A stretch of 63,987 nucleotides of DNA, filler included, from Folioceros fuciformis (lineage: Eukaryota), in NCBI GenBank assembly GCA_049999805.1. It is 21 parts of 21 records of this genome, joined end to end, with 100 filler letters (N's around TTAATTAATTAA, not from the genome) between each part and the next. Parts side by side here need not be neighbours in the genome. Positions count along the whole stretch, not along the records: positions 12,607 to 15,618 come from JBNGIO010006794.1; 20 more parts are not named here. One strand, written 5' to 3'. The translations under genes and the position numbers were made by a program. The notes under the pieces were generated by a model. That model was not told the DNA's origin. It did not search any database and saw only the letters and a program-made list of their open reading frames with translations. Shown here one piece after another: positions 4,401 through 62,153 of the stretch (its first letter is position 1; each line of letters opens with the position of its first letter).

Positions 4401-6753
4401 ATTGCGGTTGCTGATGCTGCAGAATGGATTGATCATTGAGAGACTGAAGTTGCTGGTCTAGCTCTGAAGTTGAGACAGTACGGTCCATCTGTTGAGATTC
4501 TCCCGAGAACATGCTCCTTCCATCATTTGCAGGACCACCATCAGCAGGTGCACTAGCCGAAGCAGGCTTCTCCTGTGTTTGTCCAAATTGATGCTGACCA
4601 TCCAATTTCTGAGGGGACCTCAAAGAAAAGGGGGGAGGCAGCTTAGATTGCTGCTGAAGGTGAGCATGATGCTGCATATTAATCTTCTGGAACTGGTGCA
4701 GCTGCTGTTGCTGTTGGTGAGATCTCATTGACTGTGACTGCGCACTTGGCCCAAAACTCAGTTGGGAGGCAAAACCGTTTCCCATTTGCAATCCACCAAT
4801 GCCATCACCCACAATGCCCATATTTGCAAGCGTCTCCTGAGATGGCAGCAGCGGCAGCCCACCATTCCCTGTTCTAGACAAGGGGATAACAAAGGAAGGA
4901 TTCGGAGGAGACATAGCTGTCATACCAAGGGCAGGGTCATCTCCATCAGGGAGGCGGAATGGTGCCATTCCTATGGGCGCATCCAAGTTAACATACGGGC
5001 TGCTTAATCCATTTCCAGACATTCCACGAGCAGCTGCAAACATGTGAGCGGTAGCTTGTTGCTGAATTTGCTGCTGGAGTTGAGAAAGCTGCTGACGAAT
5101 CTGTAGCTGCTGTGTTGGCCCAGAGACATGCGGATGCCCCATGGGAAGGGGACGTGTCCCTCCTCCATTGAAACCCAAGACTGTACCCATGGGAGCAGGA
5201 AATCCACCAGCCCCTCCCAGTTGCTGTTGTTTTGCCTTTGGAACGTAAGGAGCTGCACCAGCAGCTGACGCCACTGCTGCTGGTACATATGGTGCGGCAT
5301 TAGCATTTCCAATGCTTGAGCTAGCACTGGAACCTCCATTGACAGATGCAGAACTCACAGAGGAGTTGGTCGGTTGTGCATTCAATCTTGCAGGAAGACT
5401 GGCAGGACTGCTTAGGCTTGGCACAGGGCTACTTGCTGAGCTGTCACTCTCTATTTCCGAAGTTCGTTGCGGTGAAATCTGAGCAGCAGCTGAAGATGGC
5501 TCAACAGAAGGGGAACTAGTAGCTATAGGAGTTCCATTTTGAGACTGAGGGCCAGAGCCTGTGCTGGGCACAGAAATAAAAGGAGCCTGAGGATTAACAC
5601 TGTTCAGCAGCTTTCCTCCACCAGGAGTGACTCCTCCCCAGGCTGATAGAGCAGCTCTTTGTGCTGCAGCAACAGCTGCTGGTACAAATGCAGGAGCTGA
5701 AACGGGGAGCCCCTTATTCCGAATACCTGCCACAGCTGGTATCCAATACAGAGAGAAAGCCTGAGAAATCACGGAACAAAGCTGAGCCGGGAGCTGGAGT
5801 GCACAGCCAGACAGCCTACTACCACCTGTGCGTTTAAGATCAGCATAGCACAACTTGATACTCAAAGCCTCTAACAAGCTGAAAGACTTAATTAAAATGT
5901 TTTTGGCAACATGTCTGCACTCCTAACACATCCAGTTTTCTGTCAAACGTCAACATACCAAAGGAAGATAGAAACCCATATGACCTGTGCACATCTAGCA
6001 GCGGTTTAAGTTCAAAGCCACTCACGGGCTGTTCCAGGAGCACCACTTGCCCGACTGGCAGAAGCAGTCCAGGTATTGGCTGTGGTTGAGCTTGAAATAC
6101 CAGAGACTGTTGATGCAGGAGGTCTTTTGGTCCCCAAACAAGAGAATAGAAACATGTCAGAAAGAAACACAGCTGATAATTTCCCATTTGAGGTGCCTTC
6201 TCATGTTCATCCACGTCATTGCAGTGTGAAGACTGCGTAGAACTTCTTGTTCAGTGTCCGCAGATCGGTCCCTAATAGCTAACATGCACTTCATCTTTCA
6301 AATTGCACTGCTGGAATGCATGCTGCTCCATACAACAGAAGGTGATGCATTGCCGGCCCAGGTCTCATGAAAGCCATACAAACAATTTCGAAGTTGTGTA
6401 GAACTGTTTATCAAATTCCATTCTATCCACTACTGCTAGCCAGATGACAGCAAAAATCACCCGAAACTTACCCTGAGCGTGTCACACCAGCAATATCATG
6501 ATTATATTCGCATCCCTTGTCCTCATTCTGCATGGCATGAAAGCCAGATGATCATGTACCAACCACGCAACGAAATGACAGCACAAATCTTGCTGTGGAA
6601 GTAAGTGCTGATACGCAATCAAAAAATGAAGGGAGCACATGTTGCGGTCTAACATGGCAAGAAGAACTAGAGAGAAAGCAACAGTATCCACAGATCTCAC
6701 CTTACAGTACCCTGTCAGCAAGAGCTCTTTGCATGCCTTCTCTCGTTTTGGCA
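1491..6753 (-). CDS. PAN3: PAN3, regulatory subunit of the PAN2-PAN3 deadenylase (multi-exon; start exon unresolved, candidate ATG near 7412)
   Basis: Spliced CCCH finger [21 protein letters not shown] (exons 6701-6753 and about 6472-6527), PAM2-like [10 protein letters not shown] and a Q/S-rich low-complexity region. Pseudokinase: FHSLYPLE...[54 protein letters not shown]-terminal knob: [72 protein letters not shown]. Stop at 1491. Confidence 0.95.
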
Positions 6754-8859
6754 CTGCATGGAGAGAAAGCACAACACAACTGAGCCGATACTCCCATGGA
6801 GCTCAGAAGTCAAGAATGTAGAATGCTGTACAAGCTCTCTCAAATACTGCCCAACGGCCAACAGGACTGACATCCGATAAACCGATACACATGTTCAAAC
6901 AACGTCTTGAATCAAGCAACGTGGCTGCTGTCTTCTTGCCCGCCAGATTTACAGGGAGCTTCAAGTGAGATCGTTAACCTGCTCTGCCTGACGTGGCACG
7001 ATCAACAACATTGTGCGCAAAATTGCATTGATCACCGAAGAAACAGGTGCCGGATGTTGCCCAATACCGACAAGTGACGTTGCTGTACCACACAATACCA
7101 CAAAGGGGACGAGAATCCTCAGACATACTGTGGGCAAACGAGCAACAACTCCTCCACCCATTTTCACACCACTTCCTTCATGAACAAGTCTGACACGATG
7201 ACCATTACGGCAGACTGCTCCCACCTGCTTGAAAGCGTGAAAGCCATCCTGATTCCAATTTGGGGCATGTAACGAACAACAATGCACGCAATGACTGCAA
7301 TGACTGTGACAAATTACAAATAGGCATTCACACAAGCCGACCAGTCCCACACGGATGCTGGTGAATTCAAGGAGGCCAACCTCGCGGGAAGCTTCTGATG
7401 GGGACCGCTCATTGCAGCAGTCGATGGAGGGCTGATAAAAAGTTCTCATGCCGCGCTTCTGGGTCAGTCATACACGGTCCACAGCACCACGTCAATGGCG
7501 GCACCCAATTGGCCACGAGTCAGTCCCCAAGCCCCTGCCACCACAGACAGCATAAGAGCGGCTGCTGCTATCTAATTAGGCGATCACGACGAGCTGGCTG
7601 GCCGTGAGCCGCGACAGGAACGAGAGCAATGGGATACACCTCCGACGCTCAGCGTGTGCGTGTGCTTGTTGTGTTGGCTCTTGGTGTATGGCTTGCTGCT
7701 GGCTCCGCAGCAGACACAGACGATGGTCCGGCAGAGAAAGGGGCCCGCAGACTGCAGCAGTGAGAGATGCGAGCACACAGTTGCATTTGGATTGCTACGC
7801 AGTCTCAGGCCTAAAGAGTCTCCCACACGTTTTACTCCTTCCAGTAATTTTTCAACAACGTTACAGCCCTAATATGTCACACCTCCCCCTCCCCTATTGG
7901 CGCTCGTACGTTCATCTTAGATACTTGGAACAGGCTACTCCACACATGCTTGGTCAAAATGCGCCGCTGCCCGCAACACGTCTTGTTGTTGACACTGTAA
8001 CGCATGCACCATAATTTGTGGATGACTTCATACAGATTTAAAACACAAACATATTTACATTTTATCTAATATTAAGTTTCTTTTCCAGTTTTGTTAATTC
8101 CTAGTTTGTTCTACAAATTCATTAATGCATGCCTGTAGAATATGGCTAACATGCCAAAGCAACTGCGGCAGTCCGTATATTTTTCTAGGATATGATATTG
8201 AGATTAAATTGGAGAAGTGACAACCAGATCATACAAGGTGAGTTGAGACCTCGTAATTAGAAACAACTCCATTTAGATTTTCTTTCATTTAGTTGATGTA
8301 ATCCATGTATGCACAAAAGATTTTCATTCAACTATATTATGAGTTCCTCTTGCTTCCAAGTTTCTATTGATTTGAGTGTTAGGATCAGAGATCTTGCAAT
8401 AACTTGAATGAGTTTGCTTGCATGTGATGTCAAAATTCATATCACTTCAACCAACAAAATGTAGATCACCAACCATGCTTAAAAAGTTAGATGAAAATAT
8501 AAAAACACAAAAAGAAAAATAAGCGCATTGAACTAAATTGGTCTCGGCACTTAGTATACGAGCACAAGTTGACACATCAAACCCTTGACTTGGCTTCTTT
8601 TATTGGTCCCCAGATGTTCAAAGTGGCTTCACACGCACAAGCGGTAGCTAGCCATCAGGCCATAAGCCATGACAGTCTACAGGATGCTCAATAACAAGAA
8701 TCTTTGAAATGGCCTAGGGGCTACGCCTCTTACACATTGCCCAAAGGCAATTGCCTTGCCAAGGTTGTAGAACCTGTAGGACTAACGCAAGCACCAACCA
8801 CTCCCCATCTCACACTTGTTCTCTAGTTTATAATAGTTTTGGGACTAGTATTGGTGCAG

Positions 8860-9620
8860 TGGTGCGCTACGATGGAGTGGAGTGGTGCGCTACGGTGGAT
8901 CAGAGTGGTGTGCTCTAGTGGAGCGGTATGGTGTGGAATAGGGAGAGGTGTGGACGTAGAATAGAGCAGTGTGGTGTGAAGCAAGGGAGAGGTTTGGGCA
9001 TAGAGTAGGGGGATGCTCAGAGATGGGCATAGGAGTGTTGTAGAGCATGAGCTCTGGAGAATGAGCAATATGACGATATGTTGCAGGAGCAATATAAAAC
9101 GATAGTATGAGTGGTGTAGGGGTGTACAAATGGTATAGCAGATGAAAATGGTATACAAGCATGGTCGAGCAAGCAATTAAGGTTAAGGGTTTAGCGGAAT
9201 AGCAAAGCAAAATAAGATTAAAGCTTAGCCACATGGTAGAGCCAAATGAGATTAGGGTTTAACAGCATGGCGAAGAAGAATGGGTTTAGCGTTAAGCGGC
9301 ATGGTGGAGGAGAATGGGTTCAGGGTTTAACGGCATGGTGAGGTAGAATGGGTTTAGGGTTTAGCAGAATGGTTAAGCAGAATGGGTTTAGCATTTAACA
9401 GCATGGTGGAGCAAAATGGCTTAGGGTTTTATTCATGGAGCAAATAGGTTTAGGGTTTAGTGCCATGGCATAGCAGAATAAGTTTAGGGTTTAGTGGCAT
9501 AATGGAGAAAAATAGGTTTAGGGTTTTCTCAACATCGTGGAGCAAAATGGGTATAGGGTTGAGCAACATAGCGGAGCATAAGGGCATAGAGTGGAGCATA
9601 TGGAGAGCATCATAGGGTTA
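8860..9620. repeat. Compound degenerate minisatellite: G-rich ~22-bp units, then about 12 copies of a 34-bp unit containing plant telomere-like GGGTTTAGGGTTTA
   Basis: Units such as gcatggtggaggagaatgggttcagggtttaacg and gcatggtgaggtagaatgggtttagggtttagca recur at about 9160-9575. gtggtgcgctacg repeats occur at 8860-8895. Confidence 0.8.
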
Positions 9621-10029: not shown

Positions 10030-10129
10030 NNNNNNNNNNNNNNNNNNNNNNNNNNNNNNNNNNNNNNNNNNNNTTAATTAATTAANNNNNNNNNNNNNNN
10101 NNNNNNNNNNNNNNNNNNNNNNNNNNNNN
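10030..10129. other. Artificial contig spacer N44-TTAATTAATTAA-N44 (first of 20)
   Basis: Identical 100-bp linker with stops in all six frames. It also starts at 12507, 15619, 17140, 20557, 21914, 23443, 28669, 32779, 36926, 38538, 44295, 46191, 47439, 49830, 52464, 57171, 58364, 60209 and 62054. Confidence 0.99.
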
Positions 10130-10596: not shown

Positions 10597-11135
10597 AGTA
10601 TTGGAATGGTGGGGTTTTGTGGACCCGGGGAGAGCATCTGCGCACACGCTTTCTGTGCTTCCCAGCAGCCGTCAAAAAGACAAATTGGATGACACGGGGT
10701 TCGCTGTTCACGAAATGGAATTGGCGTGGTGAGTGGTAGGTGCAAGGAACGACGGCAATCGTTCGACAGAGCAGCTAAAAGTAGGCAACAACCTCGACTG
10801 CGCCGAAACCGTACTGGATTTGACCGCATTTCAGTGGGTCGTTTGAAACAGCCCTTACGCCTTCCTTCTTCCAGGAGGAAGGAGGTTGGGTACGGTCTGA
10901 TTGGATCGAATCCGTCATATCATAATGGTCCTCCATGATGGTCATTGATGTTTTTTTCTGTTTTGACCCTTCCAGCAGTAAGAGACAAGATGTAGTGGAT
11001 TATCCGTGTGTCTTGGCTTGCCTTGTGCGAGGTGATGGTAGGAGTGCTCGTCTTGCGAACAACCTTCTCCACGCGCCAGTGATGTTCTGAGAAGATTCCC
11101 ACCGGTTGAGTGTCGATTGCGCAGTGCCGGTAGGC

Positions 11136-12506
11136 TCAGATCACGGCTTCATCCATCTCTGGTGATCTGTGTAGCTGCGACGAAGCAGCAGTGGTGGAGC
11201 TAGCGTCGTCCTGTAGGGCCTGCAGGGTAGAGTATATTACGGCGAAGCGTGTCCCAGTGAAGCAGAACAGGAGACTGCTACTTGTAGCGTGCTCAACATC
11301 CATACCTCCCCGTTTATCATGGCTGATGGTGGGTTGGAGTTACGTGGTTGACGCAAGGCTCTTGCCAGTACCCTCCTGATTCTCCTCTGTCGACGAACTC
11401 GCCAGCATTCCAGTATAAGACGAAGAATTGTCGTTACACCCAAGAAGATCAAGACCCCTGCAACATTGGACGGACCTCAGTAAATAAAGGGCAAGTCATG
11501 TGCCTTGGTTCTGGTCCATTTTCAAACTCTAATAATCCAGTATTTCACATGTGATTCACGACATGCTTGATGAAAGGTTTCACCCAGTGTTTTGCCACAA
11601 GGATTGACGTACAAGATGTACCTATGATGATATTCACAGGAAGAGCAGAAGCCCCAAGAAATACGGAGATTAGTACGTCAAAGAGCAGTCCGCTGACGAG
11701 GATCGCCAGGGCCACCCAGAGCGGCTGAAGTCGACACTGTGCATCACAATCAGGAGCAGAACAGCTTTGCTTGACATGAAGATTGTGATACAAACGAAAC
11801 AGAGTTGCAGAAACAGGACTGTGAACTAGCTGGCGGCAAGGAAACACAATTCATACCCTGTTTGGAGCTTGTCCATCTAACCTCCACACCCAGAATTGCT
11901 GCAGCACAGACAAGAAGACAAATCTTCTGATCAGATATGACTACGTAACTGTAACGAGCTCACGAGATTTCTGAACAACAGTGCTGCTGCCCACTTACTC
12001 CTGGTTGGGTCATCGGAGGAAGGACGTTCAGGCAGATCTCCCTAAAGAGAAAAACAGGGCATGAGTCTGAGAGGGAAGGACATACGAAACAGACGTTTAG
12101 GGAAGATGAGAATGTCGGCAACTTTACATGCATATCTCGCAGTCGTTGCTGCCCCTTCTGGCAAACCATGTGTCTATGCATGGCCGATGGGCTACAGCCA
12201 ATCCACCCCGACACGCACATCCCAATTGAATTAGCGGCTCTTGACTTGTAAGGTGACAGATCCTGCCAACAAGCTTAGCAGTCATGAGAGACCCACTCCA
12301 CCATTCCATCCCATCCATCCCCAGCTCCCACAGTCATATCTCACCTGCAGATGTCCTCGCCGCTGGAGCTCCGGGGAATGACGGACCCCGTGCCCGTCTC
12401 GCCCTCCTCCTCCCTCCCATCCACATTTCCCGCATCCGAGGCGTTGGAATTATGCAATTCCGACCCCCTCTCCTCCACGTCTTTCCCCTCCAGTACCACA
12501 GTTGTC
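11136..12506 (-). CDS. RING-CH (RINGv/MARCH-type) membrane E3 ubiquitin ligase, 5'-truncated
   Basis: Spliced C4HC3 RING-CH: CR|ICH...LGCACRGGLAVAHRPCIDTWFARRGSNDCEIC. Then exon QFWVWRLDGQAPNR (11857-11898) and two TM helices PLWVALAILVSGLLFDVLISVFLGASALPVNIIIG|VLIFLGVTTILRLILECW. Canonical GT-AG introns; stop at 11136. Confidence 0.9.
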
Positions 12507-12606
12507 NNNNNNNNNNNNNNNNNNNNNNNNNNNNNNNNNNNNNNNNNNNNTTAATTAATTAANNNNNNNNNNNNNNNNNNNNNNNNNNNNNNNNNNNNNN
12601 NNNNNN

Positions 12607-13723
12607 GGAGGCCGGCGAGACGGAGACGGGGTCCGGCATTCCCCGGAGCTCCAGCGGCGAGGACATCTGCAGGTGAGATATGGCTGTGGGAGCTGGGAGC
12701 TGGGGATGGATGAGATGGAATGGTGGAGTAGGTCTCTCATGGCTGCTAAGCTGGTTGGCAGGATCTGTCACTTTAGAAGTCAAGAGCCGCTAATTCAATT
12801 GGGAATTTCGTGTCGGGGTGCATTGGCTGTAGCCCATCGGCCATGCATAGACACATGGGTTGCCAGAAGGGTCAGCAACCAGTGCGATATATGCATGTAA
12901 CGTTGCCGACATCCTCATCTTCCCCTAACGTCTGTTTCGTATGTCCTTCCCTCTCAGACTCATGCCCTGTTTTCTCTTTAGGGAGATTCGCCGGAACGTC
13001 CTTCCTGAGTGTTTCCAACTAGGAGTAAGTTTGAGTTTCCTTGCCGCCAGCTAGTTCACAGTCCTGTTTCTGCAACTCTGTTTCGTTTGTATCACAATCT
13101 TCATGTCAAGCAAGGCTGATCTGCTCCTGATTGTGATGCACAGTGTCTAGTTCATCCGCTCTGGATGGGCGTGACGACCGTCGGCAGCAGCATGCTCCAT
13201 GACGAACTAATGGACGTATATGTTCGGGCTTCTGGTTTTCCTCGGATGATCATTTCAGTAATACTTCGTACGTCAATGCTTGTGGCAAAATACAGCGTGA
13301 AGCCTTTCATCAAGCATGCCGTGAATCACATGTGAATTACTGGATTATCACAGTTTGGAAAGGGACCAAAAGCAGGGCACATGACTTGCCCTTTATTTAC
13401 TGCGGTCCGTCCAATGTTGCAGGGGCCTTGATTGTCTTGGGTATAGCCACAAGTCTTCATCTTTTATTGGAATGCTGGCGAGCTCGTCGAAGTGTCGTAC
13501 GTGCACGAACTACGCAAATCCAACCCACACCATCAGCCATGATAAACGGGGAGGTATGGATGTTGAGCGCGCTACAAGTAGCAGTCTCCTGTTCTTCTTC
13601 ACTGGGACATGCTTCACCGTAATATACTGTACCCTACAGGCTCTACAGGACGACGGTAGCTCCACCACTGCTGCTTCATCGCAGCTACACAGATCACGAG
13701 AGATGGATGTAGCCATGATCTGA
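12607..13723 (+). CDS. Diverged paralog of the RING-CH gene (third RING Cys lost, one exon deleted, TM exon remodelled); gene or young pseudogene
   Basis: Reverse-complement homolog of about 11055-12410 including introns. Exons at <12607-12672, 12762-12896, 12982-13024, 13144-13258/13267, about 13423-13553 and about 13640-13723. No in-frame stop is seen if the GTACGT donor at 13268 is used. Confidence 0.75.
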
Positions 13724-14609
13724 GCCTACCGGCACTGTGCAATTGACACTCAACCGTTGGGAATCTTCTCAGGACATCACTGGCGCGTGGAGAAGGTTGT
13801 TCGCAAAACGGGCAGTCAGACCTCGGCAAAGCCCCGTTTTCTTAACAACTTTGCCCCGAAACCTTGGAATAAAAGGGGCAGTTTTCAAAGAAAATGGCTT
13901 TGAGCCTCCAGGTGAACTGAAAACAGTGGCGCCCAGGAATCCTAGTTTTCTTTAGAAAAATGGCTTTTAGATTTTTTTTCCTAAGAAAAAACTGATTTTC
14001 TGCTCTATGTACTAGATAATATTTTTTTTGATGTATTATATTGTATATTAAAAACTTAAGAATGTTAATACGAATCATAAATCAAATAACATAAACTTTT
14101 AATAAGGAACAACTTTCAACAAGATTCAAAGTATTCATAATATATACTCATACATAATAAAACCTTCTTTTGCATATATGCTCAACTTTCTCCACTATGA
14201 ATTAGGGTTCCAGAGAGAGGAGTATGGATAACGATGATGCTTGAGTAAGTAACATTGCTTGAAATTCCATGGTCAATGCTCATGTGTAGTGTTTGTCCTC
14301 CCTCCCAAAACGTGCAATGAAGAACATGTAATTTGGACTTTGCATATATGTCTTAGCTTGAAGTGTATTTTGCTTGGGAAATCCTCTCTTTTGGTATTGG
14401 AAGTATGAAGCATTCAATGAGGTTCACTTTTGTGAAACAAAGTAGCAGGCGAAAGAAGGGGGCTAGCACAACTTGCTAAATTCTAGCTTAAATGTCACTC
14501 TATCACGATGAGATACAAATAATAAATTTCTAAATTAAAGTTACTGAATCCAACTACTGAATTCTAGCCAAGGATTTAAACATTGAAGACTCTTTGTTCC
14601 AACTTGCTC

Positions 14610-15718: not shown

Positions 15719-17139
15719 GCCCACCAACTGACCTCCTCACACACACCTAGCCAAAACCCATTGGCAAAGGCAAAAAACAAATACCTCCAAGAAGCAGCCA
15801 AGGCCATACTTTATTAATCTAGTTTATCCAAGCCATATTGGGCAGATGTAGCACAAATTGCAACATATGTGCAAAACCGCTTGCCCACCTCTTCTTTCAT
15901 AGGAGCTACCCCATATGAGCGGTGGATAGGTCATAAACCATCCATTTCACATCTGAAAATATTTGGCAGTCGTGTGTATATGCACATCCCAAAGACCCAA
16001 CAGAGGAAGCTGGATTACCAAGCCCATGCTATGACCTTCATTGGATATACTGAGGGTATCAAAGGGTATAAGGTATATGATCCTAGCTCTGGCCATGTCA
16101 CTCACACCTGTGTTGGTATATTTGATGAAAATAGCTTATTGGTTGTGGCTTGTGCTAGAGAGGGGGGCCGAAAGGATGCGATGACTGACTCTTAGGTTAT
16201 TGAACTCCATAGCGATAGTGACTCTGAACTTGAGCAAATAATTCCATGTGTGAGTCAACCACAAGCAACTCTACCACAATCCCCAAGCCATACCTCAACT
16301 CCAAGCTTAAATCCACCACCACAAGTTGACACTGATGCTGGTGATGCATTTGAGGCCAATGCAAGTGAGGGTGAAGCTGATACCAATGTGCTAACACAGC
16401 CTGAACCTGGTCAGCTTGCTACGCTTAGGAGGTCAGTGAGACACCACACAAGCTCTCCCTTGGAATGGAGTCAAGTGCCGCTTGCCATGGAAGGGCACAT
16501 ACAGCCAAATGCAAATACGAATGTCATGTTGGCTCAAATACTCATAGTAGCCCAAGACCTAGGTGAACTAGCATCCTACAAAGAAGCCATCAACTCATTG
16601 GAGAAGGAGCAGTGGCAGGCAGCAATCAAATTAGAGTATGATTCTCTCATTGAGAACGAGACGTGGGAATTAGTTGATCTACCTCATGGAAGGAGGCCGA
16701 TTTCAAACAAATGGGTGTTCAAAAGGAAACTCAACCTTGATGGCAGTACATCTAGGTTCAAAGCTAGACTAGTGGTGTGTGGATTCTCCCAGAGAGAAGG
16801 GATAGACTACAATGAGACCTTCTCCCCCATTGTGCGTGCGTCATCATTAAGGACACTCATGGCCATCGCTGCCCAGGAAGGTTACCACATCCACCAGATG
16901 GATGTACAGACGGCTTTCCTTAATGGCCTCCTTGAAGAAGAGGTATACATGATGCAGCCTGAAGGTTACATTGATGCCAAGCACCCAAGCAAGGTTTGTA
17001 GGCTGAAGAAAATGCAGTATGGCCTCAAGCAATCGAATCGTGGGTGGAACTTTGTGGTTGCACAAATATCTTGTAAGGAGAGGGTTTAAGCAATTAGATG
17101 CTGATGGCAGTGTCTATGTATATAAGAAGAAAGGGCAGA
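15719..17139 (+). mobile_element. Ty1/Copia pol remnant (integrase C-terminus plus reverse transcriptase), degenerate
   Basis: TPYERWIGHKPSISHLKIFG, FIGYTEGIKGYKVYDP, EYDSLIENETWELVDLP, KWVFKRK, RFKARLVVCGFSQREGIDYNETFSP, HQMDVQTAFLNG and YGLKQ, with internal stops. Confidence 0.95.
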
Positions 17140-17239: not shown

Positions 17240-19760
17240 CCATGCTCGCTTCAGCCTGCACTACGCGGAGGTAGCCACCCTCGTGGCCCTCATCTCCTAC
17301 GACCAGGACGATATCAGCCGCGCAACAGCGCTCTTGAACGAGACGGAAGTGCTGGCGGTGCAGCAGGCGCAGAAATGGAAGAGCCACAGCAACCTGCGCA
17401 AAGTGAACGAAGCCGTGACCAATATCAAGAAGTGGGCCATCGGCAACACCAAGAAGATGGGCCAGGCCATCGGCCAGGCTCTGCCTCTCCAGATCCCGCT
17501 CCCCCGTCCGGGAGGCGGCTCCGGCTCCGGTTCTGCATCCTCGCCTTCCGTCGTCGGTCCTAACCTTCCCTCAAACCCTAGCCCTAACGCTAACCCTAGC
17601 CCTAGCAGCACCGCCGCTGCCGTGTCTTCGTCGGAGGAGGCAGAGGAGGAGGCGACGGAAGATGTGCCTCACAGCAAGGAGGACCTGAAATGGATCCACC
17701 GCTCCCGCAGGGCGCGCCTCTGGGCCCTTCTCTTTCAGGCGGAATGTTACCTCATGAACTCGCTGCTGCAGATCGTGGGAGCCGGCGAGAGCTGGAGCGC
17801 CATGTTGAAGTTAGGGTACAGCCTGCAGCGCACCTGGAGCATTTACAGGCACTGCCAGGCCAAGCTACGGCAACTGTTCAAGCAATGGGTAGAGCTGGAA
17901 GGCTCCTTCGGGCTGCCCCCGGCAGCCATGGCGGCGGCAACGGCAGCAGCAACAGCAGCTGCTGCCGCAGCGCAAGCCGCGGGAGGAGCAGCAGGAGTCG
18001 GCACTGGCAGCAGCCGCAGTAGTAGTATCCAGGACGTGGCCGTGTCTGGACGCGTCTTGGAACACTCTGTCTCGCTTCCTCCCAGGCCGCCCCCGGCCTA
18101 CGAGGAGTGCAGCAAGCCGCTCAAGTGGAACCAGAAGGCGGACGCGGCCCCCGGGGCGGAGACCGGCGTGTCCTCGCCCTCTGCGGCGACCGGGCCCGCG
18201 GACGAGCTGGAGGTGCTGGACCCGGGGAAGGGCGTGAGAGAGGACCGGGAGCTGAGCCGGCTGCGGATGGGAGTGGAATTTGGGGCGGGGGCCTTCAACC
18301 TCCTGGTGTCCCTCATCCCCTCCACGTACCAGAAGGCGGTGGAGGTTATGGGCGCGCCGGCCGACCGGGCGCGGGGGCTGTCGCTTTTGCAAAAGGTGGC
18401 GCGGTCGCAGCACCCCCGGGCGCCGCTCGCTTCGCTCTTCCTTCTCCACTACCACACCGTGGTGATGGGTCTGTTCCCCTACGCGCCGGAGCACAGCAGG
18501 AGCGCGGAAGCTACCCTTGCGGCGTTGCCGCCTTCTCTGGCCCAAGCCACGCTCTTCAAGGTGATGCGCTCCCGCCTCTGCCGCTACGAGGGCGCCGTCT
18601 CCAGGGCAGTGGAAGCGATGGGGCCTTTGCCATCTCCCGGTAGCAGTGAGAACTGGCTGGAAGAGCAGGGAATCAGTCGCCGGCTCCGGCATGCTCTACT
18701 GGAAGAGCTGGGATGGTGTCTGCTCCTGCAAGGGGATTTCCGCAAAGCGGCAGACTGTTTCCGACAGCTCTTCCAGGACACGGTCTGGTTCAAGCCCATG
18801 TATGCTTACCTACAAGCAGCGTGCATGTGGGATGCGGAGGATCCGCAGCTGCGGGACGAGGCGGCCGGGCTGTTGCGTGACATCCCGATGCTGGCTTCAG
18901 CCAAGAAGCTGGCGCTGGAGCCGGTGGAGCAGCTCGGGGTGGGTGTGGCAGGCGCATTCGTGGGTTCTAACCAGGCGCCCCTCTTCCCCGCCCTGGAGGT
19001 GGCCGCGTTCTACAACGGGTTTCAGCAGATGGAGAAGCCGGCTCTGGAGCGGCACCGGCAGAATGTGGAAGACTGTCTCAGGTCCAGCCGGCTCGGGAAG
19101 CGGGGATCCGATTTCGTGGACGAGTTCAAGATGAATGCCCTGGACCAGGTGGTGGGCGTCGTGTCTGCCAGGCCTGCCGATTATCCTGAGGCTAGCAGCG
19201 GCAGCGGCATGGCCAGCAGCACGGGTGCTGCTGCTTCTGCTCCTCCGTCACAATTCGAGCACAAGTGGTCTAAGGTGAGCAAGCTCAGCTGCAGGTACTT
19301 GCTGGCGTTGTGCCAACTGAACTTGGGGGAGAAGCAGGCCGCCGTGGACAACTTCCGGTATGTTGTCGCAGCCACGGACGTTGTGCCGGGCAACGTGGTG
19401 CCCTACAGCTGCTACGAGCTCGGGTCTCTGATGCTCCAGGCTGATCACAAGTCGGAGGAGGGGTTCGAGCTGCTGGATCGGGTGAGCTCTTACCCTCCCC
19501 ATGAATTTCAAAGCCGCCTCAAGTTCATCATCACTGAAACCATCAAGATGTATGGGGGGACTTTGCCCGAGCCCAAGCCTGAACCTGTCGATCCTGACTC
19601 CCCACCTGGCGGCCCCGGCCTGGACCCCAAGAAGGGCAACATCTTTTCTAAAGCTGCCGTCAACCTTGGCAATCTGGGAAATTTGGGAAATCTGGGCAAC
19701 ATCAGCAATAGTCTGGCAAACATGAACCCATTCAGTAAGAAGGCAGGTGGTGACGCTTGA
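17240..19760 (+). CDS. Iml2/TTC39-family (DUF3808) TPR protein, intronless over the visible part, 5'-truncated
   Basis: Open frame from the gap (HARFSLHYAEVATLVALISYDQDDISRA). Motifs AECYLMNSLLQI...ESWSAMLKLGYSLQRTWSIYRHC, GVEFGAGAFNLLVSLIP...KAVEVMGAPADRARGLSLL, RAPLASLFLLHYH, W..PMYAYLQAAC and VPYSCYELG match my recollection of TTC39/Iml2. Confidence 0.85.
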
Positions 19761-21098
19761 AAACGAACACATACTCCCTGAATAGTGACACCCAGTTGTT
19801 GGAAAACTTATCACAAATTATCATGGTAAGGCATGAGAGAGGCATTCCCTGACGACCACTTCGCCACACCAAAAACGTAGCTTCCAACAGTCTTCACATC
19901 AGAACATTGGCACCAGAAAGGGCGAGCTTGCAACCTCACAACAAGCAACGGCCAGCTTTCAGGATGTGTCCGTCGGATACCATTTCAAGAGGCGCTGATC
20001 AGAACATCCAGCCCAACCTGCTGGTGTGCAGTGCCAGATGGTTCGTACTTGGTGCGACTTGGTCTTCCGGGTCCTGCAGCATTCCTATCCCGGTATTGGC
20101 ACAACTTGGGCCACCGGCGAAGGCAGAGTTTATTCCAAAAGATGTTGAAACCTCGACTACCTTTTCGGTTTGGTGGGCTTACATAAGGTTCAGATTGTGC
20201 TCTCGGAACAAACCCTGCATAGCATTTACAACCAGCTTACAGGCCTTGCTGCCAGTGCCAAGGTATATTGCAAACAGGCATTCGTGTGCCTCCTCCTCGT
20301 CCTCACTTAGGAGACAGATTAAGTCAAGAACAGCATCCTCCACTCATCGTCACACAATTGAGCTTGCTGCGTCTTATTGGTATTGCACATGGCATACCAA
20401 AGGGCACATTCTCTCACTATATATTTTTTAATGTTTTCCCATGGCGTAGCTATCCAAATATTCTCTTTTGATGTCTATATTTTTTTCTCTCATTTTTTAA
20501 CGACCAAATTGGACTCTACACCCAGAGGAAAAAAAAACATCATAACTCTTCGTTTTNNNNNNNNNNNNNNNNNNNNNNNNNNNNNNNNNNNNNNNNNNNN
20601 TTAATTAATTAANNNNNNNNNNNNNNNNNNNNNNNNNNNNNNNNNNNNNNNNNNNNAGCTCTTCCTCCGCTCCAGCATTCTCCCTGGCCTCTCGATGTTC
20701 ACAAATTCCAATTTCCTTGGGGTATTTTCCTTCACCCGCCCACCCTCTAATAATAATTTATTAAATCAAACCTGGGCTGCAACCGGGGTCCATATAACAT
20801 GCACCTTTTCATCCACCCTGTATAAAATCGTTCATACTACATCCTCTGTCATTGTAAACAGATTCCTTTCCTTCCATCAAAACCCAAGACACTCGTTCAC
20901 AATCCCGGGTCCTCATTTCCATGAGAGTCGTTTAACACTTCCATCCTACAGCACAGTACCAAGAAGCAAAGCAAACACATAATTTATGGCTTTCATATGC
21001 TATGTCAAGTACAAACATAGGGCAACTGTATTTCAAATTGGGACTCATGACAAAAGAACTAAATGAAGATTAGGGTGCATGGATTCGAAGCCATGACT

Positions 21099-39192: not shown

Positions 39193-41301
39193 CTAGCTGC
39201 TCATGTGGTCCTTCTTCCGTTTCGTGCAAAACCGGAAAGCCAGCTTTGGAAAAGTATTCCTCTGCTTATAACTCAGAGAACAAAACGAGTTCACCCACTG
39301 CACGGACGATTCAAACCTGTCGATTACCCTATCCTCTCGGATTGCACGACTCCACGGGACCGCACGCCTGTCAAAGGCCAGGCTCCGCCAAGGAGACAGG
39401 TAGCTCATTAAACCCTGCTTGAACCAGCCATCCACTGCATACGAAAGCGAGATTCGGTGTGCTACTGGTCGTGAATACCAGTCAGGGTAGTAGAAGTTGA
39501 GGAACTCCTCAAGGCAGGACTGCGGATCCCCCAGTGAGCACTTAAACTCTTTCACTCGCTTCATCAAGTCTGCGAAAGTTGCAGAATGTGGCTGCACAAC
39601 CATCACTCTAGAAGAGAAGCTGTCAGGAGGAAGCAAGCTCGGGGTCGCTGCAAAAGCCCTGTACTCTAAGAGGCCGTGGCAGTTGTCTGCAGCAAGCGAG
39701 TAGGGATCCATATACACCAGTTTGTCGAATCTAGTTTGATTCCATATATGCAACACAGTGAAGGCCTTCCACACATTTTGCGCCTGCTCCTGCTCCCCAT
39801 CATCTACTATGGGATCCACTATTCGAACTTTAGTAAATAGGCCCTTGAAAGGAGCCCAATATTCCCTTGATACTGAACGCAGCACCAAAAGGATTAGTGG
39901 TCGCTCAATTTGCGCCGCCTTGTGCTGTAGGTTGTATGAATAGGCAAAAACACCTGCAGCCAAAACATCCTCTTCGCTTGTAGCCACAGTGATAAAAGCC
40001 TCTCGCACAGACGACTCCCACTTGGGAGCAGGAGGGTATATTGCTTTCGTGGATGGAACGATTGTATTACCCAAATGCCTATCCTGCACCGTATACGCCT
40101 TTACCTCTTCTGGTGGATAGTCGATGGGCACCGTGAACCGCTTCCAACCATTCGCTTGAAGAAGCTGCTTTGTTCTTTGCCAGGTGGAAGCCCAAACATT
40201 AGTGGCAGCTTGAGAAGGTTTCCCATGTTCGACGGTTACCCCATCCATCCAAGGTTTGAACCAGGGATTGGCAAAATGCACAATCTTGATGGGGCCGAAG
40301 AAACACTTGGGAGCATTCAGATCAAACCAGGCGGGAGGGTGGTAGTAATCGGGGAAAAATAGCACCGAATTGTATCCCGCTGGTAACCTATGCTCATAAG
40401 GAAGGCTGTACCAGTCACTAAAGTAGGCATTCAGAAACCCCTGGTCACCGCCGTTGTAAGAAGACAAGTGGTCCAGCTGGTTTATCATGTCTCTGAAAAC
40501 AGCATCAGACGGCTCAAGCAACATAACACCTGAGTTGAATTTCGTCGCGGCATACACATCCGGCGCCATGGCTGGAGTGGGGTAAGAAAATAGGTGGTCC
40601 AAGTTGACAAGAGGAAGCACATCTACATCCAGATACAGCACTTTGGAGTAGTTGGTCAATTTCCATGCCAAAAGCTTGTTGAAGCCCTTGCTCTCGTACC
40701 TGTTCTCAACCTCATCAGCTATAGTAACCTTGGTGAAATGAAGTGGTAGACGGTCATCCGAGGTGCACTCAGCCGAAGTCAGAATTAGGACCAAATCAGC
40801 CTTGCAGCCTGCAAACCGAAGGTTCTGAGCAAGCACCAGAGCTGGTTCAACGAGAGAACATGAGGTGATGACGACCACGTATGCGGACCTGCTTTCCAGC
40901 AGGCTCAAATCAGTGCCACCCTCGAAGGCATTCAAAACAGATCTGCTGAGCCCTGCTGAACCACTCCTGCCCATTAGGGCTCCTAATTCATCATCCTCTG
41001 TCAACCTCCGCCTGGACACATCGTCCCATCTGTGCACACTACCCCGAATGGAGGCAGGAGATTTGCCGCCGAACTGTTTGGAGAAGGTCGACAACCCATC
41101 TACATCCATTTGGTCCACAAGCTGAAGAGAGCTGGCTGGGATGATAGACGCACGGAGAAGAGGAGTATTCGCATAATGGAACGCACGAAGCTGAAGATAC
41201 ATAGTAGCGCACAGCCAGAACAAGATACAGTACTTGATGAATGAGAAAGGTAGCTCCGGAACTCTGCTGTTGCGCGCCCTGTACGCCTCGATAAAGTCCA
41301 T
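39193..41301 (-). CDS. Type II membrane glycosyltransferase with two tandem GT8 (glycogenin/PGSIP-like) domains, intronless
   Basis: Likely start MDFIEAY and TM FIKYCILFWLCATMYL. Domain 1: FNKLLAW...YLDVD, FNSGVMLLEPS, GGDQGFLNAYF, HFANPWFKPW. Domain 2: FTVLHIW...FDKLVYMDPY, FSSRVMVVQP, EFLNFYYPDW. Confidence 0.9.
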   Translation of the reverse strand: MDFIEAYRARNSRVPELPFSFIKYCILFWLCATMYLQLRAFHYANTPLLRASIIPASSLQLVDQMDVDGLSTFSKQFGGKSPASIRGSVHRWDDVSRRRLTEDDELGALMGRSGSAGLSRSVLNAFEGGTDLSLLESRSAYVVVITSCSLVEPALVLAQNLRFAGCKADLVLILTSAECTSDDRLPLHFTKVTIADEVENRYESKGFNKLLAWKLTNYSKVLYLDVDVLPLVNLDHLFSYPTPAMAPDVYAATKFNSGVMLLEPSDAVFRDMINQLDHLSSYNGGDQGFLNAYFSDWYSLPYEHRLPAGYNSVLFFPDYYHPPAWFDLNAPKCFFGPIKIVHFANPWFKPWMDGVTVEHGKPSQAATNVWASTWQRTKQLLQANGWKRFTVPIDYPPEEVKAYTVQDRHLGNTIVPSTKAIYPPAPKWESSVREAFITVATSEEDVLAAGVFAYSYNLQHKAAQIERPLILLVLRSVSREYWAPFKGLFTKVRIVDPIVDDGEQEQAQNVWKAFTVLHIWNQTRFDKLVYMDPYSLAADNCHGLLEYRAFAATPSLLPPDSFSSRVMVVQPHSATFADLMKRVKEFKCSLGDPQSCLEEFLNFYYPDWYSRPVAHRISLSYAVDGWFKQGLMSYLSPWRSLAFDRRAVPWSRAIREDRVIDRFESSVQWVNSFCSLSYKQRNTFPKLAFRFCTKRKKDHMSS

Positions 41302-41928
41302 AACGACGGGAAAAGAGCTTCCTGGGAACAACCCACAACACAATTGGTGAGGACAAGGAGGCAGAAATTATATGTAGAAAGCTGCAGCATCCACAATAAG
41401 ACGAGCAAGCCCGCGCATACCAGGTGCCTGAGAACTAGAGCGGGCTAATGGGCCGCATTGACCCCATAGACTGAGCCCCCGTAAACCCACAGAGGAGAAA
41501 CTCCTCTCACGACAATCGACAGCATCCGCAGCTCCCGTTCCCGACCTCCCGAGTTGGTGCGATGTTGCCAGTGGTGCCACCGGCGTCCAGCTACCGCGCA
41601 CCAGCAAGCGAAAAAGTAGCAATAGAGTGTGATTGACAGGTCTACACAGTCATGCCCGTATAACCAAGGACATTGTCGAGGTCAAGTCCCACGCTGTCCC
41701 CGCTCTTCAGCGCAAATATGAGCTCGTTGTACGGGGAATTGCTTGGAAACAGATAAATCGAACGCTACAGCTGGCTCCTGACATTAGGTAACGAATTATA
41801 TTACGTATCGTCAATATTATCTGGCGTAAAAGTGTGGACATAACTCAGCATGACCTTACATTCGTTGAGCACAGACATGCTGCCTGCGCTTTGAGGAGCG
41901 AGAGAGGAAGAGAGGGGGGTATCCCGGA

Positions 41929-58463: not shown

Positions 58464-60208
58464 AGAATGACTCAGAAAACTTGTTTGTCATGCAGCATAT
58501 GCTTAACTCTATGTCTGCTAATGGATCCAACAATGGTGAGATTGTGTGGTATGTGGACTCAGGAGCTTTGAACCACATGACATGCCATGGGGAGTGGTTC
58601 AAAGAAATGCAAGTGCTTGACAAACCTGGATATGTAGAAACTGGAGATGACACAACACATGCAATTGTGCATACAGGAACTGTACCTCTGAAGATGCAGG
58701 ATGGCAAAGTGAAGTGCCTGGTAGATGTTCTTCACGTACCCAACATCACAAAGAACTTGGTGTCAGTTGGGCAGATGGTTGAGCAAGGATTGCAGGTTAG
58801 ATTTACACCTGCAGGACTCTTTGTTGAAGAGTGCAAGAAAGGCGGTCGCCTGATTGCTCAAGGACAGAAGGTTGGACGGATGTTCACCTTGAACGTGGAG
58901 GTTCCTAAGCTGAAGTCAGCCATGTTTGCGAAGGGTACAAGGGTAGTGACAGACCTAGAGATGTGGCACAAACGCATTGGACATGTAAATGTGCAGAAGT
59001 TGAAGTCCATGCAGCATCAGAAGGTTGTCACAGGCATACCCAAGCTTACAGAAAATGGACTGCAAGGTATATGTGAAGCATGTCAACTTGGGAAACAACC
59101 TAGGAATGCGTTCCCCCATGACAAACATGTCAGCAGATATGTGTTGGATGTTGTGCATTCAGATGTATGGGGTCCTACACAGACTGCATCAATCGGAGGC
59201 TGCAAGTACTATGTGACCTTCATTGACGACCACACAAGGAAGGTGTGGGTCTATTTCATGAAAGAAAAAAGTGAAGTGATCACTCATTTTCATACTTTCA
59301 AGGCGATGGTTGAGAAGCAGACAGGTAGGCACATCAAATGCCTAAGATCTGATGGAGGGGGAGAGTACTTCTCCAGAGAGTTCAGCAAATTCTTATCAGA
59401 ACAGGGCATTCAACGGCAGTACTCATGTCGTTATACGCCACAACAAAATGGAGTTGCAGAGCGCAAGAACAGGCACATAGCAGAAGTGGCGAGAGCATTG
59501 ATGACAGAGAAGAAGATGCCTCACTACTATTGGGCTGAAGCTGTAAGCACAGCAGTGTACATCATGAACAGAACTTCCACAGCAGCGGTGCACAGTGTAA
59601 CACCGGAGGAGAAGTTCACAGGGAAGAAACCTGACTTGTCACACTTAAAGGTATTTGGTTGCATTGCTTATGTCCATATTCCGGATGAGTTGCGGACTAA
59701 GCTCGATCCAAAAGCAGAAAAGTGTGTCTTCATTGGGTATTCTGTTACACAGAAAGGATACAGGTGCTACAATCCCAGTATACGGACTATGAGAATAAGC
59801 AGAGACGTAGTCTTTGATGAAATGGGTAGCTGGTACTTTGAAGTACAAGGAAGTAGTGTAGCTGATGTGCTTGAAACTGAGGTAACAAGCAATGCAGGTC
59901 AACAATCACAAGTGTTGAGTGGACCGCAAGCGTCATCAAACTCGACAAATGTTTAGAATCCATGGAGTGGCAGGTTGCGAGGTAGTGTGAGTCCTACGAG
60001 CTCCACAGCTGTGTCTCGCAAAGGGAAGGAAAAAGTCCAGGATTCAAAGATACCAGACCTAAGTGCAGGTGCGGATGATTCAAGCGACTCTGAGCAGAGC
60101 TTGGATGAGGAATTCGGTGTACCGAAAATCGAAACACCTGGTGCAAAAGAGGTTCAATCAACCCCTGGAAGTGGTTCAATCCCACGGAGATCTGGAAGGC
60201 AGAAGGTT
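58464..60208 (+). mobile_element. Ty1/Copia pol fragment (protease, GAG-pre-integrase, integrase), copy 1, premature stop at 59954-59956
   Basis: WYVDSGA..HM, WHKRIGH, CEAC, VHSDVWGP, FIDD, LRSDGGGEY, PQQNGVAERKNR, KGYRCY. Confidence 0.97.
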
Positions 60209-60308: not shown

Positions 60309-62053
60309 AGAATGACTCAGAAAACTTGTTTGTCATGCAGCATATGCTTAACTCTGTGTCTGCTAATGGATCCAACAATGGTGAGATTGTGTGGTATGTG
60401 GACTCAGGAGCTTTGAACCACATGACATGCCATGGGGAGTGGTTCAAAGAAATGCAAGTGCTTGACAAACCTGGATATGTAGAAACTGGAGACGACACAA
60501 CACATGCAATTGTGCATACAGGAACTGTACCTCTGAAGATGCAGGATGGCAAAGTGAAGTGCCTGGTAGATGTTCTTCACGTACCCAACATCACAAAGAA
60601 CTTGGTGTCAGTTGGGCAGATGGTTGAGCAAGGACTGCAGGTTAGATTTACACCTGCAGGACTCTTTGTTGAAGAGTGCAAGAAAGGCGGTCGCCTGATT
60701 GCTCAAGGACAGAAGGTTGGACGGATGTTCACCTTGAACGTGGAGGTTCCTAAGCTGAAGTCAGCCATGTTTGCGAAGGGTACAAGGGTAGTGACAGACC
60801 TAGAGATGTGGCACAAACGCATTGGACATGTAAATGTGCAGAAGTTGAAGTCCATGCAGCATCAGAAGGTTGTCACAGGCATACCCAAGCTTACAGAAAA
60901 TGGACTGCAAGGTATATGTGAAGCATGTCAACTTGGGAAACAACCTAGGAATGCGTTCCCCCATGACAAACATGTCAGCAGATATGTGTTGGATGTTGTG
61001 CATTCAGATGTATGGGGTCCTACACAGACTGCATCAATCGGAGGCTGCAAGTACTATGTGACCTTCATTGACGACCACACAAGGAAGGTGTGGGTCTATT
61101 TCATGAAAGAAAAAAGTGAAGTGATCACTCATTTTCATACTTTCAAGGCGATGGTTGAGAAGCAGACAGGTAGGCACATCAAATGCCTAAGATCTGATGG
61201 AGGGGGAGAGTACTTCTCCAGAGAGTTCAGCAAATTCTTATCAGAACAGGGCATTCAACGGCAGTACTCATGTCGTTATACGCCACAACAAAATGGAGTT
61301 GCAGAGCGCAAGAACAGGCACATAGCAGAAGTGGCGAGAGCCTTGATGACAGAGAAGAAGATGCCTCACTACTATTGGGCTGAAGCTGTAAGCACAGCAG
61401 TGTACATCATGAACAGAACTTCCACAGCAGCGGTGCACAGTGTAACACCGGAGGAGAAGTTCACAGGGAAGAAACCTGACTTGTCACACTTAAAGGTATT
61501 TGGTTGCATTGCTTATGTCCATATTCCGGATGAGTTGCGGACTAAGCTCGATCCAAAAGCAGAAAAGTGTGTCTTCATTGGGTATTCTGTTACACAGAAA
61601 GGATACAGGTGCTACAATCCCAGTATACGGACTATGAGAATAAGCAGAGACGTAGTCTTTGATGAAATGGGTAGCTGGTACTTTGAAGTACAAGGAAGTA
61701 GTGTAGCTGATGTGCTTGAAACTGAGGTAACAAGCAATGCAGGTCAACAATCACAAGTGTTGAGTGGACCGCAAGCGTCATCAAACTCGACAAATGTTCA
61801 GAATCCATGGAGTGGCAGGTTGCGAGGTAGTGTGAGTCCTACGAGCTCCACAGCTGTGTCTCGCAAAGGGAAGGAAAAAGTCCAGGATTCAAAGATACCA
61901 GACCTAAGTGCAGGTGCGGATGATTCAAGCGACTCTGAGCAGAGCTTGGATGAGGAATTCGGTGTACCGAAAATCGAAACACCTGGTGCAAAAGAGGTTC
62001 AATCAGCCCCTGGAAGTGGTTCAATCCCACGGAGATCTGGAAGGCAGAAGGTT
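60309..62053 (+). mobile_element. Ty1/Copia pol fragment, copy 2, uninterrupted frame
   Basis: Same 1745-bp interval as 58464-60208, with 6 differences found by eye. Confidence 0.97.
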
Positions 62054-62153
62054 NNNNNNNNNNNNNNNNNNNNNNNNNNNNNNNNNNNNNNNNNNNNTTA
62101 ATTAATTAANNNNNNNNNNNNNNNNNNNNNNNNNNNNNNNNNNNNNNNNNNNN

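Follow-up and report, generated by a model that had tools for sequence, protein, structure and literature searches.

Protein Change in Excess of Silent and Intronic Change in One of Two Copies of a Plant RING-CH Ubiquitin Ligase Gene in Folioceros fuciformis

Introduction

How does one copy of a conserved gene come to differ from its sister several times more in its protein than in its silent sites and introns? The question is raised by two copies, A and B, of a single gene predicted to encode a plant ubiquitin ligase of the RING-CH (RINGv) type that carries two membrane helices near its C terminus, both present in a 63,987-nucleotide stretch of DNA (the window) from Folioceros fuciformis (NCBI GenBank assembly GCA_049999805.1). 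Copy A occupies 11136-12506 on the minus strand, on a 2.4-kb contig (10130-12506), and copy B occupies 12607-13723 on the plus strand, on a 3.0-kb contig (12607-15618, from JBNGIO010006794.1). A reading made from the sequence alone had described B as a duplicate with exons far more diverged than its introns, almost entirely through amino-acid change, and had proposed that strong positive selection had produced a less hydrophobic and possibly catalytically dead decoy. Our analysis points to selection for amino-acid change, acting on the part of B from the RING to the first transmembrane segment (TM1), as the most likely cause. The whole account makes B a young second copy, released from the constraints of the ancestral ligase and evolving under such selection; we give it about an even chance. 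Of two possible origins for B, paralogue or divergent allele of A, the former seems to us more probable.

Exon and Intron Divergence

To compare the copies, 10901-12506 was reverse-complemented and aligned globally to 12607-13900 with MAFFT. Under a six-exon model the reading frame is open in both; the alternative forward frames of the spliced sequence both contain stops, in A and B alike. By silent sites and introns the two split at about 7% divergence. The introns differ by 2.5-9.7% (mean 6.7%), with mismatches at 5 of 82 aligned positions in intron 1 (6.1%), 4 of 85 in intron 2 (4.7%), 3 of 119 in intron 3 (2.5%), 15 of 155 in intron 4 (9.7%) and 6 of 86 in intron 5 (7.0%); the 3' flank has 9 of 102 (8.8%). 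Exons 1, 2 and 6 are no more diverged than the introns, at 5/66 (7.6%), 11/135 (8.1%) and 6/81 (7.4%). Exons 3 to 5 alone exceed them, with 11 of 43 positions (25.6%), 37 of 124 (29.8%) and 26 of 129 (20.2%), three- to ten-fold more divergence than in the introns between them. The contrast drawn by the sequence-only reading therefore holds for exons 3-5 and fails for the remaining three, and its near-identical introns are true of intron 3, which precedes the TM exon and for which it had counted about three differences, and not of the introns overall. Pooled, 96 of 578 exonic positions mismatch against 42 of 629 in introns and 3' flank (p 3.9e-8), and exon 4 stands apart from its two flanking introns (37/124 against 18/274, Fisher p 2.7e-9).

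The excess is one of amino-acid change. A recount of the TM exon (13144-13258 in B, 11622-11736 in A) agreed exactly with the earlier count: 25 of its 38 codons differ, 24 of them replacing the amino acid and none giving a stop, and the differences fall 14, 12 and 5 on the three codon positions. The recount of the RING exon was likewise exact, nine of 44 codons differing, all non-synonymously, among them the codon for the third zinc ligand (12805-12807), which is TGT (Cys) in A and ATT (Ile) in B. Nei-Gojobori (NG86) estimates of non-synonymous (dN) and synonymous (dS) divergence were 0.47 and 0.053 for the TM exon, 0.276 and 0.037 for the 96 codons of exons 2-4 (p 2.7e-5), and 0.202 and 0.073 (ratio 2.8, p 0.0013) for the whole set of 166 codons whose alignment is unambiguous, so that dN/dS is distinguishable from 1 both in exons 2-4 and over the clean codons as a whole. 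Non-synonymous change also exceeds change outside the coding sequence, in exon 4 by 34/91 to the 42/629 of introns and flank (p 6e-14), while the synonymous sites of exons 2-4 diverge just as the non-coding sequence does (4/72, p 1.0). Third codon positions in exons 2-4 hold 10 of 58 differences where 19.3 would be expected (p 0.0028), and when the A exons 2-4 were mutated at random, so few synonymous-only codons arose in 0.075% of 20,000 trials. In all, 39 of 96 residues are replaced in these exons at about 4% silent divergence. Such an excess over both silent and intronic sites, which the first reading had claimed, is not simple neutral decay.

The zone of high divergence also follows the mature transcript of B. 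In B the fourth exon ends at 13267, as a splice joint in a sequencing run described below attests, and not at 13258, the limit given earlier; B has lost the ancestral donor GT, which A uses after 11622, and splices from a GT downstream, so that its last 9 nucleotides (nt) belong to the exon in B alone. Six of these nine positions differ, after which divergence falls to the 9.7% of intron 4, and the fast zone thus ends at B's own exon limit.

Two mutational causes were considered and rejected. Adjacent mismatch pairs in exon 4 number 8 against 8.1 expected, with none of the excess that multinucleotide mutation would bring; in exon 3, seven mismatches fall within 13007-13014, five of them in a row (13010-13014), a cluster that looks like one complex event. 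The exon differences comprise 36 transitions and 60 transversions (23 and 19 in the introns) and include all 12 change types, a spectrum that rules out adenine-specific or single-base mutagenesis of a kind like that of diversity-generating retroelements or deaminases.

The Protein Family and the Copy That Changed

The RING-CH domain, of C4HC3 type, has eight zinc ligands. Copy A has all of them, the first Cys encoded in exon 1 and the others in exon 2, and B has seven, with Ile at the third and without an adjacent Cys, so the loss of a ligand reported by the first reading is real. The exon-2 peptides of both copies match the Pfam profile RINGv (PF12906) over positions 3-47 of its 47, with 44.2 bits for A and 36.5 for B at a cut-off of 21.6. 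A full HMMER search with the RING exon of A returned 353 proteins at E <= 0.001, the best of them 61-68% identical; a word-index protein search with the same exon against longer proteins gave no candidate. Eight matches that were looked up are angiosperm proteins, named RING-CH-type domain-containing, uncharacterized or hypothetical. The homologues are laid out as RINGv, a linker, an optional tryptophan-rich (W-rich) cassette, a nearly invariant TM1 and a second membrane segment, TM2. Membrane segments were judged by the best 19-residue mean of Kyte-Doolittle hydropathy, the usual threshold for that scale being about 1.6. Copy A scores 2.55 for TM1 and 1.63 for TM2, and B scores 1.10 and 1.48; by this threshold A would have both helices, and B would have lost TM1 and kept a borderline TM2. 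The lower hydrophobicity of B's first segment, proposed in the first reading, was thereby borne out.

To place the changes, eight full-length angiosperm homologues served as outgroup, taken from 14 fetched of 150 listed after those truncated or scrambled beyond the RING had been excluded; they are distant (61-68% identity over the RING exon) and were compared at the protein level only, with 60% or more counting as a majority. A and B differ at 67 sites. At 26 of these the majority residue of the outgroup is that of A and at one that of B (binomial 4e-7); at 18 it is a third residue, while a further 18 sites vary within the outgroup and 4 have no counterpart in it. Over the 38 residues of the TM1 exon, 28 in A and 10 in B agree with the eight-protein consensus. 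Judged by these homologues, A is the copy that keeps the ancestral, deeply conserved sequence, nearly all of the excess change is on the lineage of B, and the changes in B removed features conserved between F. fuciformis and flowering plants. A directed loss of hydrophobicity in exon 4 of B was also considered and rejected, since the loss is no more than random amino-acid-changing mutations would give (p 0.375).

A copy without a zinc ligand, a cassette exon, a donor site and a conserved TM1 might simply be an expressed pseudogene drifting neutrally, with the deficit of silent and intronic change put down to chance, ascertainment and complex mutational events. Its replacements look random in kind, dN/dS is 1 or less in exons 5-6, its open frame is not significant, the run at 13010-13014 in exon 3 has the look of a single complex event, and the pair could be the oddest out of very many windows. 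Decay, however, predicts equal divergence of exons and introns, which is hard to square with 30% in exon 4 between introns at 2.5% and 9.7%; adjacent changes in exon 4 occur at the expected frequency, and third codon positions are spared. We regard an explanation by neutral drift as unlikely.

The coincidence of the high-divergence boundaries with exon limits, and the raised synonymous divergence of exon 5 (dS 0.19-0.37), could instead suggest gene conversion, in which a distant paralogue or its complementary DNA, homologous to B in the exons alone, replaced exons 3-5 of B and left the introns A-like. A distant donor would, however, bring saturated synonymous differences, and dS in exons 2-4 is only 0.037. 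Within the window there is no other match to the B exons, and neither an inversion nor an alternative donor for exons 2-5 was found there. Because exon 4 of B is less like the consensus than that of A, such a donor would need the same unexplained history, and conversion seems to us highly improbable.

Copy B in Sequencing Runs

Whether B exists as assembled was addressed with Logan contigs of four coded runs (X1-X4), aligned to contig B at 80% likeness. Runs X1 and X2 are DNA from one sample, X4 is from the sample of X1, and X3 comes from another study; the RNA label of X3 is an index guess, supported here by spliced contigs. Copy A was seen in the runs solely through A-type contigs aligned to contig B. 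A 474-nt contig in each of runs X1 and X2, at depths of 13.4 and 10.3, is identical to 13084-13557, a span that takes in exon 4, intron 4 and exon 5. Both runs also contain a 495-nt A-type contig that has these ends, at 15.4 and 7.18. In X3, contigs match exons 4, 5 and 6 of B with 0 mismatches (records 17, 20 and 22) and carry GT..AG joints at 12896>12982, 13024>13144, 13267>13423 and 13551>13638 (cut +2). The B-type letters of the RING exon, including the Cys-to-Ile codon, account for 56.9 of a summed depth of 105.1 in X3 and for 4.65 of 11.9 in X2. An A-type transcript is present in X3 as well (record 19, depth 89.7). Copy B is genuine, as the matching contigs in runs X1, X2 and X3 and the correct splice joints attest, and it is transcribed and spliced at every intron; the variant bases on which the first reading depended recur in contigs of other runs, and the copy is not silent. 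That B might be an artefact of assembly or sequencing, a low-quality or chimeric small contig, was suggested by the shortness of both contigs and the concatenated nature of the window, but identical contigs in three runs and correctly spliced forms refute it for exons 2-6 and leave it scarcely credible.

The idea that B is one member of a diversifying family found no support, since the pieces that lie across exons 4-5 are of two forms, A-type and B-type, among the longest listed at 80% likeness (2547 further pieces are unlisted). Two gaps in coverage were not used as evidence: among the contigs of X1 listed for 12653-12973 there is no B-type one, and exons 3-4 of A are too unlike B to be aligned at 80% likeness.

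The runs also bear on whether A and B are alleles of a single locus, held apart by balancing selection at selected exon sites while recombination homogenises their introns. There is precedent in the major histocompatibility complex (MHC) class I and II genes, in which introns are homogenised by recombination and selected exon sites are kept apart. In X1 and X2 the A and B contigs form pairs that begin and end alike and have comparable depths (B 13.4 and A 15.4 in X1, B 10.3 and A 7.18 in X2), and in the assembly both contigs break in the same region of exon 1 and are neighbours in contig order; together these suggest two branches of one assembly fork. The depths in X1, at 15.4-16.5 for A, 11.8-13.4 for B and 8.17 for the unique flank of B, cannot decide between allele and paralogue. 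Against balanced alleles, dS inside the diverged exons is as low (0.037) as divergence in the introns, although linked silent sites should ride with the balanced ones, and the same low dS contradicts homogenisation of introns between old copies of any kind. Moreover, homology stops abruptly about 100 nt past the stop codon, where B enters a repeat, B looks disabled and not alternative, and A-type and B-type sequences are both present in a run of another study (X3). Alleles under balancing selection are in our view distinctly unlikely.

Other features of the runs were noted in passing. An unspliced X3 contig, 13239-13452, crosses intron 4 with 0 mismatches (record 18, depth 57), from either intron retention or DNA in the library. 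In run X4, 200 places on contig B are changed, 76 of them C>T and 112 G>A, as in a bisulfite-converted library, and most C in 12872-13162 is read as T.

The Proposed Selection and Its Possible Causes

Selection for amino-acid change remains because decay, multinucleotide events, a base-specific mutator, conversion, homogenisation and artefact each fit poorly. In the history that we favour, B shed the constraints of the ancestral ligase: the third zinc ligand is Ile, the 42-nt cassette exon is deleted, the exon-4 donor is lost and a GT 9 nt further on serves in its place, and the first membrane helix would no longer be hydrophobic enough to span a membrane. Amino-acid-changing substitutions in exons 2-4 piled up at several times the silent rate. 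On this history B stopped working as a membrane-anchored ligase, after which selection would have favoured amino-acid change as such, whether diversifying or as an escape from interference with the A-type protein. Because the replacements in B are random in kind, they fit a regime in which any change is good, or a stepwise escape, better than directed remodelling, and they limit what can be claimed about a new function. The protein is probably catalytically weak or dead, and a decoy role, as first proposed, is conjecture.

Several points weigh against selection as the explanation. The signal is regional, with dN/dS at about 1.0 in exon 5 (the TM2 part, where synonymous divergence is raised too) and 0.64 in exon 6. 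The comparison is one of two sequences without a nucleotide outgroup, NG86 is approximate, and the exons tested were chosen for looking odd. The open frame of B is weak evidence, since under random mutation no stop arose in exons 2-4 in 19% of trials, nor in exon 4 in 48%. Replacements in B hit invariant residues, including the zinc ligand, and they match random amino-acid-changing mutations (BLOSUM62 p 0.09, hydropathy p 0.375), as in a decaying gene. Translation of B is presumed, the 5' part of both genes is missing because both contigs break inside exon 1, and runs X1 and X2 may be the assembly's own sample, so that independent support for B comes from X3.

A more specific version of selection for change would make B a translated, functional derivative caught in a conflict, its opponent being either the A-type protein or an effector by which a pathogen attacks the A-type ligase; almost any amino-acid change in the region from RING to TM1 would then be favoured. 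That the fast zone tracks B's spliced exon limits and leaves silent sites untouched may be cited for such a conflict, which we offer tentatively and hold to be on the unlikely side. If it were true, B would be a plant E3-ligase counterpart of the hyper-evolving genes of venom or immune type.

Copy A has ready counterparts among plant RING-CH proteins with two TM segments (KAK3010973.1, XP_073001897.1, XP_020580116.1 and KAF9600913.1), which share its order of parts, its RING exon (61-68%) and its TM1 (28 of 38 residues), and a pair of Typha isoforms shares the cassette difference. Copy B is unlike them in TM1 (10 of 38, hydrophobicity lost) and in lacking the third zinc ligand, and both copies differ from them by a longer, unrelated C-terminal tail. 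The rose protein RhRED is reported to be an active E3 with an N-terminal C4HC3 RING and two C-terminal TM domains, the RINGv domain being needed for its activity, which was shown with an E2 of the endoplasmic reticulum (PMC12214528); as described, its architecture is like that of A. Further afield, copies A and B share a Pfam domain with animal ligases. In animal MARCH and viral K3/K5-type ligases the RING-CH domain is likewise followed by TM helices, and the TM segments choose substrates; the shared domain is the tie to A and B, the plant proteins forming a separate group.

For the mode of evolution, the nearest parallels are in snake venom genes, conotoxins and trappins, for which reports describe accelerated exons and conserved introns (PMC6062510, PMC3862624, PMC2831891). 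As in A and B, non-synonymous change between young duplicates there exceeds synonymous and intronic change. Those, however, are secreted products of large, expanding families in an obvious arms race, whereas here there is one pair of membrane E3 ligase genes, and unlike those cases the fast copy loses conserved catalytic and membrane features. Among the matches listed in a literature search for exon-over-intron divergence or selection in plant RING-CH genes, none dealt with the evolution of this family. Accelerated evolution of a recently arisen gene copy is a known phenomenon, and this pair is an unusually steep case of it. If selection is the cause, its contrast between protein and silent change would be among the steepest known for a plant membrane E3 ligase of housekeeping type, and a conserved ligase would have spawned a rapidly remodelled, probably inactive relative that is a candidate regulator, decoy or partner in conflict; if B is a pseudogene with an odd substitution pattern, the consequence is little.

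Gene Structure and Placement of the Copies

On the plus strand, exon 1 of B (12607-12672, from the gene model) encodes the first RING Cys and has its 5' end cut by the contig start; the loose end of an X3 contig at 12758 carries the last letters of this exon. Exon 2 (12762-12896) is the RINGv exon, identified by Pfam and translation, and exon 3 (12982-13024) has X3 joints on both sides. Exon 4 (13144-13267), the former TM1 exon, is followed by exon 5 (13423-13553), with TM2, a basic stretch and a net deletion of 21 nt relative to A, and by exon 6 (13640-13723), which in the gene model ends with a TGA stop. The corresponding parts of A, on the minus strand, are the homologous part of exon 1 (12345-12410, from alignment and gene model), beyond which the contig extends 96 nt further 5', to 12506; exon 2 (12128-12262), with all ligands of the exon intact by Pfam and translation; exon 3 (11999-12041); exon 4 (11622-11736), with TM1 of ancestral type; exon 5 (11306-11457), with TM2 and the basic stretch, for which A-type contigs occur in X1, X2 and X3; and exon 6 (11136-11219), with the stop codon, the limits of exons 3, 5 and 6 being those of the gene model.

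Intron 3 of A holds a stretch of 143 nt that alignment shows to be missing from B (at 13030-13031), and within it lies a microexon of 42 nt (3b, 11857-11898, minus strand), flanked by AG and GT and in frame. Its product aligns with the W-rich cassette present in most homologues, and a Typha protein is annotated with two isoforms, X1 and X2, that are told apart by the equivalent cassette, so that B without it resembles a short isoform found in nature and is not necessarily disabled by the loss. In the A-type X3 transcript (record 19), 197 unaligned letters lie between exons 2 and 5, where 200 would be expected from exon 3, the microexon and a 115-nt exon 4, minus 3 absorbed at the joint; the length fits inclusion of the microexon and use of the upstream donor in A. 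The homologues pass directly from the end of TM1 into TM2, which also fits A's use of that donor. In a further X3 contig the RING exon is skipped, the donor of exon 1 being spliced to an AG that lies 24 nt before exon 3 (12672>12958, reported as 12669>12955, cut +3; depth 96.5, with only 27 letters on the shorter side), a joint that would give an in-frame RING-less isoform of A or of B.

The position of the copies in the window says nothing of their position in the genome. The window contains 20 identical, artificial spacers of 100 nt (at 10030, 12507, 15619 and 17 further sites), each made of 44 N, a 12-nt linker with stops in all frames and 44 N. The window thus strings together 21 short contigs, of about 1.1-10 kb each, and features that span a spacer are not genomic. 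The spacer at 12507-12606, which has no strand, joins the two unrelated contigs of A and B, so that their adjacency and inversion are uninformative; the inverted duplicate around a gap that a repeat search scored here is a product of concatenation, and a local inverted pair, as the word duplicate might imply, was not borne out. Windows of concatenated contigs can in this way make unlinked copies look like local inverted duplications.

Beyond the stop codon, the 3' flank of B (13724-13822, plus strand) still aligns with A, up to a repeated element that starts at about 13822. At 13819-13919, where homology between the copies ends, summed contig depth climbs from the gene's values of about 28 and 17 to 121.7 and 89.3. 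The moderately repeated element that abuts the 3' untranslated region of B may mark an insertion or the limit of the duplicated segment. The end of contig B (15233-15618) is a very high-copy repeat with many rearranged joints, its summed depth in run X1 being 5300-8600 against about 8 in neighbouring unique sequence.

Other Features of the Window

An Rfam search over the whole window returned 0 matches. A minisatellite at 9177-9600 has a 34-nt period and at least 8 copies, 60-76% identical to the reference copy, and is built on TTTAGGG-like motifs of the plant telomere type. Fragments of Ty1/copia type lie on the plus strand at 16250-17089, 58481-59956 and 60326-62101; two of their open reading frames (ORFs) have gag-pre-integrase, integrase core and SH3-like domains and one has RVT_2, and the two integrase-type ORFs are on neighbouring contigs of which the first 300 nt are 99% identical. 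Together with the angiosperm proteins that best match A, these fragments and the minisatellite give the genome a plant-like character. On the minus strand, a 716-codon ORF at 39193-41343 has a weak match to glycosyltransferase family 8 (30.2 bits). An uninterrupted 825-codon ORF at 17283-19760 (plus strand) matches Iml2/TTC39 (PF10300, 161.5 bits) and lies where the GC content of the window peaks (0.613 at 18001-20000).

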